A stretch of DNA of 64,000 nucleotides, taken from positions 1,536,001 through 1,600,000 of the forward strand of contig OY969706.1 in assembly GCA_963702095.1 (NCBI GenBank), given 5' to 3'. Source of the stretch: Candidatus Bathyarchaeota archaeon (GTDB lineage: Archaea; Thermoproteota; Bathyarchaeia; Bathyarchaeales; Bathycorpusculaceae). The notes under the pieces were generated by a model. The model saw only the letters and a list, made by a program, of their open reading frames with translations. It had not been told where the DNA came from and searched no databases. The position numbers and the translations under genes are program-made. Below are positions 21,014-24,171 of the stretch, piece after piece; the first letter of the stretch is position 1, and each line of letters begins with the position of its first letter.

Positions 21014-21958
21014 TTGTTTTGGGTGCCACCAGACTTGGAGTTCAAAGGGCGAGATATAGTTTCAATCGAAGACTTCACACAAGCAGAAATCAACCACGTC
21101 CTCGACGTCGCCAAATCCATGGAGCCACTGGCCAAAGGCGGCTCAGACATGCTAAAAGGCAAAATCTTAGCCACACTCTTCTTTGAACCCAGTACACGCA
21201 CACGCTTAAGCTTCGAAAGTGCCATGTTCAAACTCGGCGGCAACGTCATCGGATTCGCCGAACCAGAAGTGTCCTCCATACGCAAAGGCGAAAACCTTGC
21301 CGACACAGTTCGCACAGTCGAAAACTATGCTGATGTCATCGCCTTGCGCCACAGTTTAGAGGGCTCTGCAAAGTTGGCGGCGGAATTCAGCAAAGTCCCA
21401 ATCATTAACGCGGGCACAGGCGCCGAGGAGCATCCCACGCAGGCACTAATTGACCTCTACACGATGCGAAAAGAAAAAGGCAGAATCGACGGCTTAAAAG
21501 TGGCGCTGTTAGGCGACTTGCGCTATGGACGCACCGTGCATTCACTGGCATACGCGTTGGCACTCTATAACGCCGAGCTCTTCTTGGTGTCGCCTGAAAC
21601 TCTGCGTATACGCAAAGATGTACTCTCAACCATCAAAAACACAGTTCAAGTAACAGAAGTCAGCAATCTTGAAGAAATCATTTCGCAAATCGACGTTCTC
21701 TACGTGACCCGCATCCAGAAAGAACGGTTCCCCGACGCCACCGAATATGCTAAAGTCAAAGGGGCATACCGAATCGACCTCAAAACGCTGGAGAAAGCCA
21801 AAAAAGACCTCATTATCCTCCATCCGCTGCCCCGCGTGGACGAAATTGCCCCAGAAGTGGACAACACGCCACAGGCCCGCTACTTCCAGCAGGTTTGGAA
21901 TGGCATCGTGGTGCGGATGGCGCTGCTCTCAATGGTGCTGGGCGCCGTCGAATATTAG
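21014..21958 (+). CDS. pyrB: Aspartate carbamoyltransferase catalytic subunit
   Basis: [45 protein letters not shown]. Confidence 0.97.
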
Positions 21959-24171
21959 GTTGCTACAAACCGGTCGAAGGTTGTTATTGTGCTCATTGAG
22001 CCGCAACTGGGGCATTTGTGAAGCGCGCCGTAATGGTTTTTCTTGCAGTTGCTGCAGTAGCTGACGGCGCGGTTGTAGGTGAAAAAGTCGCTTGCGTCAT
22101 TCTCGATTATCCGCTTCGTTAAGTCCATAAGGGCTTCGGCGCTGAATTCGGCGCCTTCCAACTCATACAAATCCAAGCAGCCGCCTGCGTTTAAGCCTTT
22201 AGTCAGCTTCGCCACCTCAATCGTGCCATGCGGCGCCACCAGTGGCTGAGCAGCCTTGATTGTGACCCGTTTGACTGTTGAATAGAAGGGTTTATCGCGT
22301 GTCCCAGAGAACTTTACTTTGGCAACACCATAGCGTTCAATGTCAAGTTGCGCTAGACGCTCGGCGGCTTCATGGTTGCCCAACATGGCGGCGTAGAGGC
22401 GTTTACCGTATTTTCTACCCACCTTCTGCTTAAACGCCAACAGATTGGCGATGACTTCTTCTGCGAAGGCACCGCTTTCTTTGGAGTCCATCGGTTTCTC
22501 GGTGAAGGCTTCGATGGCTTCTCGGAATCCTGCAAAGCCAATTATGCGTGAACAGTTTTCCAGTCGGAAGTAGGTGTCGCCGTTTGTTTTCTGGAGCAGA
22601 AAGGGCAAGTTATTTTTTCCGAACTGTTTTAACGCGTTACTCTTTATTGTTAGGGCGCGGGCGGCGAATTCAAAGCGTTCTTTTAAGAACTCGTTGAATT
22701 TGTTTTGGTCTTTGCCGCATTCCATGGCGATTCGAGGCATGTTAATGGTTACGAGGCCCAAACAGCCTGTGCGCAATGTGTCGGTTTCCCAGTCGCCTGT
22801 GAGGTCCGAAGCTAACTTCATGCCTGAGGAGGAGTAAGCGAAGTTTTCACTGTCTTTTTTTGTCAGGTTAGCAAAGTATGGGGCGCCGCCTTGAGTTGCG
22901 AGTTGATGAGCTTTAAGTAGAACGGTTTTTGCTTTCTCGTCTGTTAGGGCGGCGCTATTAATTTTTATAACCAGTTTGGGACTCAACATCGGTTTAGCGG
23001 CGCTTTCTTCTAGGAAAATGTCGAGGATAAGCGACGCCAAAAGCAGGCTTTCCCCTGTGTAGTCGCCATATTTGCCGCATGCTTTGCCGTTTGGTCCCAC
23101 GGCTTCTTTTTCTGCGGTAGGTTTAGGAATGGAGAGCTCCAGCCCCAAAGTAGCTTCTGCATGCTGGTTGAGGTTTAACATGAATATTCGTAGGCTTTCT
23201 TTCAGTTTTGCTGCTTCTAAACCCTTAGCGTAGGGTGCTAAAGCGACATTGAAGTAGTTAAAAGTCTGAGTGTAATTCGCTTCTTGGTTAGCATGCAACA
23301 ACACGTTAAAAGCGATGGATAATGCAAACTTGAAGTCTTGGGGTGGCTCCATGGATATCCATTTGGGGTTCTCGAGTTTTATGCCGCTTTGGAGGAAGTA
23401 GCGGATGTCATGGATGACTTCGTTGGGTTTAAGAATCCACGTGCCTAAGCCGTCGATGTGGATGGCGCCTGAAAGCTGCGCATCCGCTATGTCACGTGGA
23501 AAAATGTTGAGTAAAGCGTATTCTCCGAAGACCGCCTCTCCAGCGATGTCGATGGCTTCAGCGCAATCCGCCGCGACATCTTTAGATTCGATGAGTGCGG
23601 TGACTTCGTGTATGGGCATGCCCACGCGGGTCAATTTATGTCGGTAATCTTCATAGCCTTTCTCAACAAGGATACTGTTAACGACTTCACGGATAAGCGG
23701 CGCAGTTAAGTACTTAATTTTGGATTTAGTCAGCCGTTTCTCAGCTTCTTTAGCAGCTTTCTGAGCGAGTTCAGCAGGAACCTTAGCTTCTTTTATTAGT
23801 GAATTAGCAATTTTGTTTGCGTCAAACTCTTCAAGCGTCAAATGCGACGTGCGCACAACCATGCCTTTTGGCTTGACCGCTTTTTTCTCAACCCGGTCGG
23901 CGACGTCAAGCACCATCTTGCCGAGGTCAGTGAGGTAATACTTTTTTGCTTCCACATCCGCTTCCACCAACTCTGCTTTTAAGAGGAATTTGAGGTGGTA
24001 GGCGAATCGGCCTGCGTCTCGGGTGGGATTCATTTTCAGTTGATTCATCAGTTCAGTGTAGGAGAGGGCGGATTTGTCGAAGAGTAAATTGAGGATTTGC
24101 AGTCTCAGGGGTGAAGAAACGGCTTTGAGAACTTTGACGCCGCGGCTGCGAACTGGCTGCTGATTTACCAT
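21955..24171 (-). CDS. Winged-HTH / ATP-cone / NrdD-like fusion lacking catalytic residues (putative regulator)
   Basis: N-terminal ArsR-like HTH ([31 protein letters not shown]); ATP cone ([23 protein letters not shown]); NrdD core ([19 protein letters not shown]); CSNC/CPSC; ends FDRFVAT. Confidence 0.85.

Follow-up and report, generated by a model that had tools for sequence, protein, structure and literature searches.

An archaeal protein family joining a winged helix to a predicted non-catalytic class III ribonucleotide reductase body, probably a gene regulator

To our knowledge, how archaea regulate their supply of deoxynucleotides is almost entirely uncharted, NrdR being found mainly in bacteria. 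This repressor of ribonucleotide reductase (RNR) genes joins a zinc ribbon to an ATP-cone, and its mechanism is taken here from passages of PMC9110341 and PMC12176259. As regards the class III reductase NrdD, passages of PMC11226230 describe the HxHD motif as the binder of the substrate triphosphate and set out what the TPAE loop and NxN flap do; the C-terminal zinc ribbon of the enzyme is given as structural in the relevant part of PMC9531940.

The gene described here lies in a 64,000-nt stretch of bathyarchaeal DNA (the window), at 21955..24171 on the minus strand, and encodes 738 amino acids from an ATG start in an uninterrupted frame. Together, the open reading frame, the Pfam matches and an AF2 model describe an apparently non-catalytic protein composed of a winged helix-turn-helix (HTH), an ATP-cone, an NrdD-like barrel and a zinc ribbon, all encoded on the same strand. 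Its ArsR/SmtB-like N-terminal domain (residues about 10-98; 23878..24144) is recognised by both HTH_5 (PF01022; residues 20-70, 27.0 bits against a cut-off of 22) and DUF7347 (PF24038; residues 14-89, 32.4 bits against 27.6). It is followed by an ATP-cone of the 'VRTS...EEFD..KI...YLTAPLIRE' type (residues 104-177; 23641..23862; Pfam ATP-cone, 30.1 bits against 25.8) and by a conserved cone-to-barrel linker (23602..23640) with invariant columns R182, G184 and P186. The ten-stranded barrel occupies residues about 211-695 (22087..23541), and the C-terminal Cys4 zinc ribbon (21982..22074) holds C706, C709, C720 and C723, all four invariant in 58/58 aligned members. Pfam NRDD (PF13597) spans residues 211-734 at 210.6 bits, compared with 643 for the true NrdD of the window. 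The intact frame, the ArsR-like head, the cone and the zinc site had all been proposed in a sequence-only reading of this DNA, and each is borne out by these data.

BLASTP relates the protein to the true NrdD of the window (40219-42345) at 24% identity (E = 5e-31), and the two proteins differ at the catalytic motifs. The active-site columns PYCVGW and SMCCRL of the true enzyme read PNEVIH and SSSGMKL here, EATPAEG of the TPAE column reads AMLGNHE, and the glycyl-radical loop YSRVVGYL is represented by FDRFVAT-stop, with the glycine changed to alanine just before the protein ends; all these substitutions had been noted previously and the alignments reproduce them. In place of a glycyl-radical domain, only the stub TTFDRFVAT-stop is found (21955..21981, minus strand; open reading frame end and alignment). 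The NxN flap, which appears as NAN or NSN in a K[ED]NAN context in true NrdDs, is deleted after the cone and linker. Among the barrel motifs that had been listed as retained, GLVTINMPR and ERLAQLD are indeed present, the barrel keeping N477-x-P-R and R605...D610, and N477, P479, R480, E551, R605 and D610 are invariant in the 58-member alignment. The third of them, HIDGL, does not stand as a retained motif: the true NrdD has HIHD where this protein has a degenerate IHIDG and, since HxHD binds the substrate triphosphate, this change is a further loss. All six functional motifs, namely the two cysteines, HxHD, the NxN flap, the TPAE loop and the glycyl-radical glycine, are thus absent, and the NCBIfam equivalog model for NrdD (TIGR02487) scores 226.5 bits, below its cut-off of 326.35. 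As judged from its sequence, the protein cannot work as a class III reductase.

An alignment of orthologues had been suggested as a way of separating a conserved loss from local decay, and the orthologues retain neither RxxGY nor the catalytic cysteine. The R[IVLM]xG[YF] motif occurs in 0/331 HTH-bearing proteins, and wherever an HTH-bearing sequence was aligned over the finger loop, the thiyl cysteine is missing. Both cysteines, HxHD, TPAE, the NxN flap and the glycyl glycine are gone in all HTH-bearing sequences aligned across those motifs, except that some distant clades keep a glycine in a [RK]xxG tail, which in one protein reads RRLGY. The protein ends within 20 residues of the zinc ribbon in 160 of the 331 HTH-bearing relatives. 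The alignments consequently indicate that the loss is ancient and family-wide, not local decay.

The search for the combined architecture, likewise proposed earlier, finds it recurring across deep archaeal lineages. All four Pfam families are present in 119 of the best 120 clusters at 90% identity, NRDD, DUF7347 and ATP-cone occur together in 58/58 diverse members, and the names of the source organisms include Bathyarchaeia, Nitrososphaerales (Nitrososphaeria, the ammonia oxidisers), Methanomethylicia/Verstraetearchaeota and several Asgard groups. In the tree, every HTH-bearing row falls in one clade (78 of 99 rows, SH-like support 98), which adjoins archaeal true NrdDs with two cones, and this topology indicates one ancient origin of the HTH-bearing family. 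The family profile matches 264 of 301 sampled genomes of the phylum, a count that takes in true NrdDs. Among the 150 match rows listed (of 531), 135 start at profile positions 1-10 and therefore include the HTH. Only one family-profile match is given by most of the f12 genomes among those listed, and by each of 3/5 complete ammonia-oxidiser genomes that hold the family. The ancestor would have been an archaeal class III reductase with two ATP-cones, whose outer cone was replaced by an ArsR-like winged helix and whose radical chemistry and substrate site (both cysteines, HxHD, the NxN flap and the TPAE loop) presumably decayed, together with the whole glycyl-radical domain in the present clade.

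The earlier statement that this architecture is undescribed stands in part. Neither the full-text literature searched nor passages of PMC9669993, PMC11226230, PMC4390871 and PMC9531940 describe an HTH-NrdD protein, although supplements of RNR phylogenies could list such sequences. The databases, on the contrary, already hold it: many genomes label it 'anaerobic ribonucleoside-triphosphate reductase', and one JGI name, 'anaerobic ribonucleoside-triphosphate reductase/predicted transcriptional regulator', reflects the combination. Databases thus probably mislabel as an enzyme what is probably a family of gene regulators.

The gene neighbourhood ties the family to nucleotide synthesis across deep archaeal lineages, as had been surmised from this locus alone, with pyrB/pyrI/pyrH, nrdD or nrdJ adjoining family genes. 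In the window, pyrB (aspartate carbamoyltransferase; 21014..21958, plus strand; Pfam OTCace_N and OTCace) is a convergent neighbour whose stop codon overlaps that of the family gene, the two genes sharing 4 nt; their tail-to-tail arrangement had been noted in the sequence-only reading. The same convergent pyrB lies directly downstream in 74/80 bathyarchaeal loci and, being convergent, does not imply co-transcription. In loci of other families, pyrI adjoins the family gene in 15 of 18 (in three of these the family open reading frame did not match the regular expression), and between 11 and 13 of the same 18 have an archaeal pyrH (TIGR02076, 207 bits, cut-off 158) that diverges from it. A true nrdD (HIHD, QCCR, TPAE, RITGY) is found directly downstream on the same strand in some Bathyarchaeia (loci L086/L115), and neighbours cut by the end of the locus keep HIHD in L088, L089, L091, L093 and L095, that of L088 also keeping MCCR. 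In ammonia oxidisers, the gene directly downstream on the same strand is nrdJ, for the B12 reductase (TIGR02504, 728 bits against 400), in 22/25 loci, and the activase NrdG2 (TIGR02495) has no match above the family cut-off in any of the 5/5 complete ammonia-oxidiser genomes that hold the family, the best reaching 52 bits against 131. In the window, one NrdG-like radical-SAM gene is found, and it adjoins the true nrdD. The neighbourhood follows function, not homology. As a separate observation, a bacterial-type NrdR gene (42342-42791; zinc-ribbon PF22811 at 54 bits) already stands alongside the only RNR operon of this genome, which counts against an NrdR-like role for the family protein here.

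With these features at hand, we favour the reading that the protein is rather likely a non-catalytic, dimeric (possibly higher-order) DNA-binding regulator of dNTP and pyrimidine-nucleotide supply, acting by analogy with NrdR. Of the reductase, the parts that serve regulation and oligomerisation appear to be retained: the inner ATP-cone with its linker to the barrel, the helices that form the dimer, and the zinc ribbon. In this model, a nucleotide would occupy the cone, the former specificity site between the two subunits, or both; once bound, it would alter either how the protein oligomerises or how its two HTH heads are placed, and with that its binding at promoters. The protein might control its own promoter and the RNR genes, with pyrBI and pyrH as further possible targets. 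DNA binding, nucleotide sensing, target genes and the sign of regulation are all features that we infer.

Candidate sites for such a regulator were sought upstream of the gene and beyond. About 65 nt before the ATG, the alignment of 74 orthologous upstream regions reveals a conserved core, TTAGTTAAG-TTTAAAC-TCTCCAGTGGAATAATAGGT, which is BRE/TATA-like and contains the palindrome AGTTTAAACT (24210..24245, minus strand); it is a putative promoter or operator. A PWM from these 74 promoters scores 41 bits at the gene's own promoter and 25.7 at the next-best position, so that the operator search in the window's lineage yields no second strong site in the 2.94-Mb genome. A weak match (15.2 bits) ahead of pyrB, at window 20887-20922, was discarded, since orthologues do not conserve it, and comparison with the conserved pyrB promoter and with the region upstream of nrdR yielded no common motif. 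A search for repeated words returned only the palindromic TATA element GTTTAAAC, rejected as an operator because its other genomic copies lie in or near unrelated genes. Rfam gives no family at E <= 0.1 between 19000 and 27000, and the scan for sigma-70 promoters and terminators was uninformative.

The ammonia oxidisers offer a different picture. Across the same 23 loci, GATC-N16-18-GATC occurs 41 times in 14.8 kb of regions upstream of family genes and nrdJ, against once in 27.4 kb of other intergenic DNA, and at both promoters the GATC spacings peak at about 10-12, 20-21, 31-32 and 40-42 bp, that is, they are helically phased. With a stricter GATC pattern, 6 of 19 genome-wide matches in five ammonia-oxidiser genomes fall at the family locus; among the others, one inside an RmlD-like gene and one upstream of a 177-aa protein without a Pfam family are read as chance or unknown. 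These phased boxes suggest a dedicated cis-element at two promoters in ammonia oxidisers. The GATC dyad is absent from 80/80 bathyarchaeal upstream regions and has 0 sites in the window's genome, and the recognition helix is almost identical between this protein and those of ammonia oxidisers; hence either the GATC boxes are not sites of the protein or recognition resides elsewhere.

Phased multi-box arrays would also suit a DNA binder that is not a classical transcription factor, namely a chromosome- or replication-associated protein coupling dNTP supply to DNA, for instance by tethering or scaffolding the synthesis enzymes, with the GATC arrays as loading sites. Consistent with this idea, the protein is near-universal and single-copy in streamlined genomes of 1.2-1.8 Mb, its conserved body is far larger than a sensor needs, and the window's lineage shows no regulon motif. 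We nonetheless regard it as unlikely, considering that (i) the arrays are confined almost wholly to two promoters in each genome, as fits a dedicated regulator, (ii) the ArsR-type winged helix is a typical transcription-factor domain, and (iii) the gene pairs with whichever RNR class its host uses.

Constraint along the protein is best appreciated domain by domain. The frame had been expected to be under purifying selection, and overall omega versus the nearest orthologues is indeed about 0.08-0.10, a rough value because dS is saturated (1.7-2.5), for which reason only the ranking of dN between domains was used: 0.02 for the HTH, 0.06-0.07 for the cone and 0.20 for the barrel. Purifying selection on the frame, strongest on the HTH and the cone, is what these substitution patterns indicate. 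Within the HTH, 58 family members all have H59, Y78 and G84, and almost all of them have G54, F56 and Y58; the nearest solved sequences are HlyU and PagR (E 0.006-0.03, HlyU giving 0.006), and the NCBIfam ArsR/SmtB model scores 31.5 bits, below its cut-off of 55. Relatives whose overall identity is only 35-46% still share 40-50 of the 74 residues of the cone. By alignment, this cone is of the same type as the inner, that is, the second, cone in those archaeal true NrdDs that have two; VRTS replaces the canonical KRDG, without the Lys of the canonical KR pair, and a search of PDB sequences with the cone alone gave no meaningful match to a solved cone. In other RNRs, the inner cone is often degenerate. 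Since the cone is of this inner type and lacks the canonical Lys, sensing of ATP or dATP is a property that we infer. The weak cone score (30 bits) and the inner type of the cone, along with the lack of an operator found in the window's lineage and the convergent arrangement of pyrB, also count against an NrdR-like reading.

The same features bear on another alternative, a transcription factor in which the cone is structural and the reductase body either is a mere oligomerisation scaffold or senses a non-nucleotide signal (the redox state, a metal bound by the Cys4 site or some other metabolite). Many ArsR/SmtB relatives sense metals or redox state, the cone is of the inner type without the canonical KR pair, the substrate contacts of HxHD, TPAE and NxN are gone, and the Cys4 site is invariant. 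Against this, cone and linker are as conserved as the HTH, the neighbours belong specifically to nucleotide synthesis, and the zinc ribbon came with the NrdD ancestry, its role in that enzyme being structural according to the relevant part of PMC9531940. On balance, this alternative seems improbable.

The AF2 model (pLDDT 90, pTM 0.82) finds its best PDB fold matches by Foldseek among class III RNRs (E 9e-26 to 1e-17), with the S. thermophilus, P. copri, T. maritima and T4 NrdDs at the top. A homodimer modelled for residues 186-680, the kind of assembly that class III NrdDs form through helices alphaA/alphaB, gives an ipSAE of 0.65, versus 0.00 for the best of three controls. The mark for a pass was reached by 20/30 proteins solved as one-chain pairs and by 1/23 solved as single chains; NrdD dimers having already been solved, this pass may come from the memory of the model. 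Repeated runs share at least 78% of contacts, with a partner pLDDT of at least 77, and the predicted interface is formed by residues 201-215, 281-297 and 325-337.

Such a dimer, with the class III dimer helices kept, and the adjacency to true nrdD in some Bathyarchaeia would be compatible with a direct regulator of the reductase protein, for instance a dead subunit that heterodimerises with active NrdD and in which the HTH is secondary. This appears very improbable, for the protein persists in ammonia oxidisers, in which neither a true NrdD nor an activase is seen and whose reductase is a class II NrdJ with an unrelated interface, the NrdD of the window is a distant bacterial type only 24% identical, and the HTH is the most constrained domain. 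It is likewise very improbable that the protein has remained an enzyme and that its barrel has acquired another activity, non-radical or initiated in a different way: the invariant barrel residues N477, P479, R480, E551, R605 and D610 and the glycine in the C-terminal tail of distant clades speak for it, but every known catalytic and substrate-binding element is missing, this clade is without any glycyl-radical domain, the retained residues are conserved in true NrdDs too and may be structural, and the whole clade keeps its fusion to a DNA-binding domain.

Returning to the NrdR-like regulator, a broader and more tentative version, which we put forward as a possibility with considerable doubt, is that the family would be the functional counterpart of NrdR in archaea, acting as the master regulator of the dNTP supply of the TACK and Asgard groups, with a whole reductase kept for its allosteric machinery. 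How large and how balanced the (d)NTP pool is would be read by the cone and the dimer-interface specificity site and turned into the binding of phased boxes by two HTH heads set far apart, thereby controlling the RNR genes of the host, whatever their class, and pyrimidine synthesis. If true, this would provide a concrete handle on archaeal deoxynucleotide regulation through a protein near-universal in Bathyarchaeia and in the globally abundant ammonia-oxidising archaea and present in Asgard archaea, as well as a clear case of a whole allosteric enzyme turned transcription factor. The label 'anaerobic ribonucleoside-triphosphate reductase', moreover, wrongly suggests that organisms such as the aerobic ammonia oxidisers are capable of class III ribonucleotide reduction.

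Compared with known systems, the family shares with class III NrdD of the archaeal two-cone lineage the barrel fold, the predicted dimer helices, the inner ATP-cone with its linker, N-x-P-R, R-L-A..D and the Cys4 ribbon. On the contrary, it lacks the thiyl cysteine, the second cysteine, HxHD, the NxN flap, the TPAE loop and the glycyl-radical domain, bears a winged helix in place of the outer cone, scores below the TIGR02487 cut-off and occurs in aerobes without activase. ArsR/SmtB proteins are small dimers of about 100-120 residues; the N-terminal 90 residues of the family match HTH_5 and, weakly, HlyU and PagR, but here form the head of a 738-aa protein. With bacterial NrdR, the proposed logic, in which nucleotide-dependent oligomerisation would gate DNA binding, is held in common by analogy, and the phased boxes at ammonia-oxidiser RNR promoters resemble paired NrdR boxes. 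Nevertheless, the DNA-binding domain of NrdR is a zinc ribbon (PF22811), for which the family protein has no match, its own being a winged helix, and the family further differs in its extra reductase body of about 550 aa, its different cone type, its archaeal lineage and the lack of any sequence relation outside the cone.

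The open reading frame at window 21955-24171 (-) encodes 738 residues without interruption, and its product is matched in Pfam by HTH_5 (27.0 bits) and DUF7347 (32.4), both marking an ArsR-type winged helix, and by ATP-cone (30.1) and NRDD (210.6), the NRDD score of the true NrdD of the window (40219-42345) being 643 bits. Both proteins align pairwise with 24% identity (E = 5e-31), and the 738-residue protein stays below the cut-off of the NCBIfam NrdD equivalog model (226.5 vs 326.35 bits). In aligned columns, the first Cys motif PYCVGW of the true NrdD reads PNEVIH, the finger loop SMCCRL reads SSSGMKL, EATPAEG reads AMLGNHE, and the glycyl-radical loop YSRVVGYL reads FDRFVAT followed by the stop. 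Thus, the unbroken frame and the losses at both Cys sites, the TPAE loop and the glycyl loop, all claimed by the sequence-only reading, are confirmed, as are its HTH, ATP-cone and zinc site. Two losses are additional to that list: the NxN flap downstream of the cone is deleted, and HIHD of the HxHD motif, the triphosphate-binding one according to the motif roles in excerpts of PMC11226230, becomes HIDG. The Cys4 zinc ribbon, N-x-P-R and R-L-A..D are kept. The protein is almost certainly non-catalytic.

This architecture recurs widely, as a search proposed in the same reading bears out: HTH_5, DUF7347, ATP-cone and NRDD occur together in 119 of the 120 best 90%-identity clusters, of 734-747 aa, the sole exception being a 697-aa entry without the HTH families, while NRDD, DUF7347 and ATP-cone were matched in 58/58 diverse HTH-bearing members. 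The family profile matched in 264 of 301 sampled genomes of the phylum (E <= 1e-10, true NrdDs included in the count), and among 150 listed of 531 match rows, 135 begin at profile positions 1-10 and therefore include the HTH. By source name, relatives belong to Bathyarchaeia, Nitrososphaerales and Methanomethylicia/Verstraetearchaeota, and to the Asgard groups Promethearchaeota, Freyarchaeota, Jordarchaeum, Lokiarchaeia, Helarchaeota and Njordarchaeum. The ESM Atlas agrees with this spread, and one sub-threshold row in it (score 0.88) hints at DPANN, as a lead only.

Conserved loss of the catalytic Cys and of the canonical glycyl-radical motif, the other check suggested, was found as well, which speaks against a merely local decay. 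Searched exhaustively, the 50%-identity representatives yielded 1626 matches at E <= 1e-3, 332 of them also passing E <= 1e-30; when the 97 of 150 listed representatives measuring 560-830 aa were aligned with the query and the window NrdD, six carried the full true-NrdD signature (P0180, P0185, P0199, P0204, P0223, P0267) and the other 91 had neither the finger-loop Cys-Arg motif nor R-I/V-x-G-Y. Among 331 HTH-bearing proteins, a set biased to relatives of two queries, 160 stop at most 20 residues past the zinc ribbon; a tail follows in 84 without [RK]xxG and in 78 with a non-canonical [RK]xxG, and 9 show no recognisable ribbon; none contains R[IVLM]xG[YF], one (P0169) reading RRLGY. Separately, several proteins of 1000-1700 aa (P0174, P0176, P0187, P0189, P0200-P0202, P0207, P0218 and others) are true NrdDs with RITGY tails, whose large insertions, probably inteins, split the match into two or more stretches.

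In a FastTree phylogeny of 99 rows, a quick method without bootstrap, all HTH-bearing proteins form one 78-row clade (SH-like support 98) beside archaeal true NrdDs. True NrdDs of this archaeal lineage carry two ATP-cones, and the family cone (VRTS...EEFD..KI...YLTAPLIRE...TRLG.PV.DV) is of the same type as their inner one; the winged HTH thus replaces the outer cone. Methanomethylicia and Asgard members retain the C-terminal tail, with Gly in [RK]xxG context, while HxHD, both Cys and TPAE are gone; the decay was therefore stepwise, with substrate site and Cys lost first and the radical domain last, in the Bathyarchaeia/Nitrososphaeria branch. HTH-less dead two-cone forms branch apart from the HTH clade, suggesting independent decays. 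Ten NrdD-like proteins (P0195, P0186, P0236, P0266, P0211, P0216, P0240, P0241, P0249, P0256) lack the finger-loop Cys motif, TPAE and the glycyl motif, a few retaining the first Cys; they branch away from the HTH clade, close to a true NrdD, and the six scanned with Pfam each show a pair of ATP-cones without any HTH. Catalysis seems to have been lost from the reductase scaffold more than once.

The gene overlaps pyrB at their 3' ends in the window, confirming the tail-to-tail abutment from which a link to nucleotide metabolism had been guessed, and this hint was strengthened elsewhere. In Bathyarchaeia, pyrB was found in 75 of the 80 best loci, in 74 of them as the convergent gene immediately downstream; the five without it end at a contig edge. 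Recurrent neighbours in 32 loci spread over the phylum are pyrI (9), a second NrdD-like gene (8), pyrB (7), the B12 reductase nrdJ (6) and a divergent archaeal UMP kinase pyrH (4). The second NrdD-like gene always lies directly downstream on the same strand, some loci having a glutaredoxin-like gene between. In loci L086 and L115 this second gene is the same G183 gene and reads HIHD and QCCR; the L086 copy is cut by the locus end and the full-length L115 one also has TPAE and RITGY, hence it is a true nrdD. Probably true nrdD as well are those of L088, L089, L091, L093 and L095, which are cut by the locus end and retain HIHD, plus MCCR in L088; that of L114 is degenerate. Further families contributed 18 loci: pyrI is next to the gene in 15 of them (three with a family ORF that the regex missed), and pyrH is divergent in 11 by strict recognition, or 13 counting two regex-missed ORFs. 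Among 25 ammonia-oxidiser loci (Nitrososphaeria), the family gene and nrdJ were both recognised in 23, nrdJ lying directly downstream on the same strand in 22 and divergent in one; no NrdG2 (TIGR02495) scored above the family cut-off in the five complete ammonia-oxidiser genomes holding the family. From these neighbours it follows that the gene travels with its host's reductase, of whichever kind, and with pyrimidine synthesis. Adjacency to a working reductase gene is seen in ammonia oxidisers and some Bathyarchaeia, but not in the clade of the window, whose conserved neighbour is pyrB.

Other features were recorded around these loci. Directly upstream of the family gene on the same strand (24285-26140, -) lie an agmatine deiminase and a carbon-nitrogen hydrolase, probably N-carbamoylputrescine amidase by inferred name; of the 80 loci from Bathyarchaeia, just 16 and 14 keep them. 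Two overlapping ORFs (26626-27096 and 27069-27998, +), matching Voltage_CLC profile positions 1-63 and 66-345, together make up a CLC chloride-channel gene divided by a frameshift, sequencing error or programmed shift. In locus L061 (7110-10730), pyrB and the family gene are both represented by fragments plus a second, inverted copy, owing to a local rearrangement or misassembly.

The preferred reading, held with moderate confidence, is that the protein binds DNA as a non-catalytic dimer and, in the manner of NrdR, regulates the supply of dNTPs and pyrimidines. In ammonia oxidisers, GATC-box arrays lie upstream of both the family gene and nrdJ (loci L098-L102, L118-L136; e.g., L099 8072-8130 and L098 8151-8200), with an approximate consensus of CGATCATTTTTCAAAACTTTTTGATCTG and a third GCGATCATCG in addition. 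The 14.8 kb of DNA upstream of these genes contain 41 instances of GATC-N16-18-GATC vs one in the remaining intergenic DNA (27.4 kb) from the same 23 loci, counts that overstate independence because the loci are kin; ten other 4-mers treated likewise gave no comparable excess there. Spacings peak at ~10-12, 20-21, 31-32 and 40-42 bp, placing the boxes on one helix face. With a stricter pattern, 19 sites were counted across five complete genomes vs 11 with its reversed control, six of the 19 being at the family locus, at least one per genome. The arrays are a candidate operator of the family in ammonia oxidisers. In the window's lineage they were not found, nor was any motif common to the family-gene promoter and those of pyrB or nrdR; there the promoter core TTAGTTAAG-TTTAAAC-TCT...AATAATAGGTA of the family gene is strongly conserved and unique in the window's genome, and the recognition helix is nearly the same in both lineages. 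A DNA-associated scaffold that is not a transcription factor appears unlikely.

As side observations, the pyrB promoter/leader (~20975-21040, +; same region in L006-L085) is very strongly conserved (AAAGTGTTATTTAGCAGTT..GGCTTTCTTGTTTTnGGTGCC) and is followed by a TTG/GTG start at ~21035 (MEFKG...), the ORF start called at 21014 probably being too early; the T-rich stretch between TATA box and Shine-Dalgarno sequence is a possible pyrimidine-responsive element. In the close relatives L006-L028, a further conserved non-coding block (GTTATTAAAAATGTGTTGCAGTCG...CAACAACAAAAGCATATAAGCACTAAC), absent from the window, lies about 100-160 nt upstream of this promoter and is a putative small RNA or promoter. 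Just 62-66 bp separate pyrH from the family gene in L105 and L154-L158; this compact bidirectional promoter contains an inverted pair of TTTAAACT boxes ~19 bp apart (TTTAAACTG-N-CATAGTTTAAA), whose TTTAAAC box also heads the family-gene promoter in Bathyarchaeia.

Selection on the regulator proposed here was evaluated, as had been recommended, with the twelve nearest orthologues. Against the closest ones dN is 0.02 for the HTH, 0.06-0.07 for the cone and ~0.20 for the barrel, with an overall omega of ~0.08-0.10, indicating purifying selection with dS saturated (1.7-2.5); HTH head and cone are the most constrained parts, the barrel being constrained too. Among the 58 diverse members, H59 of the recognition helix is invariant and G54, F56 and Y58 nearly so, with further invariant residues in the cone (V106, R107, F116, I121, I160, R161) and linker (R182, G184, P186), together with N477 and the four zinc Cys. 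A sensor role for the cone is a tentative proposal, and a low probability is given to a transcription factor with a body that responds to a signal other than nucleotides.

AlphaFold2 with the family alignment models the 738-residue protein with pLDDT 90 and pTM 0.82, and its closest folds in the PDB belong to class III reductases, led by S. thermophilus 9d3x (E = 9e-26) ahead of P. copri, T. maritima and T4, while the solved sequences nearest to the HTH are the ArsR/SmtB proteins HlyU and PagR (E 0.006-0.03). The predicted homodimer of residues 186-680 reaches an ipSAE of 0.65 vs 0.00 for the best of three controls, a pass that may reflect the model's prior exposure to NrdD dimers, which are already solved; the mark was reached by 20 of 30 one-chain solved pairs and 1 of 23 solved single chains. 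At least 78% of contacts are shared between runs, with partner pLDDT of at least 77, and the predicted interface (helices 201-215, 281-297 and 325-337) appears to be of class III type.

The 2.94-Mb single-contig genome of the window holds one family copy and the true NrdD, which sits in a bacterial-style nrdR-nrdD-nrdG operon (39526-42791, -), the sole detectable ribonucleotide reductase of this archaeon, as PF02867 (class I/II) gave no matches at 90% completeness. Its NrdR has a zinc ribbon and canonical ATP-cone, and words at ~42800-42860 upstream of the operon are what we take to be NrdR-box-like. That the family member acts as a protein-level regulator of NrdD is highly improbable, and so is a new enzyme.

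No description of an HTH-NrdD protein was found in full-text literature searches or in passages searched within RNR papers, in agreement with the novelty claimed beforehand; databases already hold the architecture, one JGI name saying 'predicted transcriptional regulator'. Regarding known systems, the protein is not a NrdD, because the defining catalytic features, when tested, were absent; it is not a typical member of ArsR/SmtB; and it is not a NrdR, because its DNA-binding domain differs.
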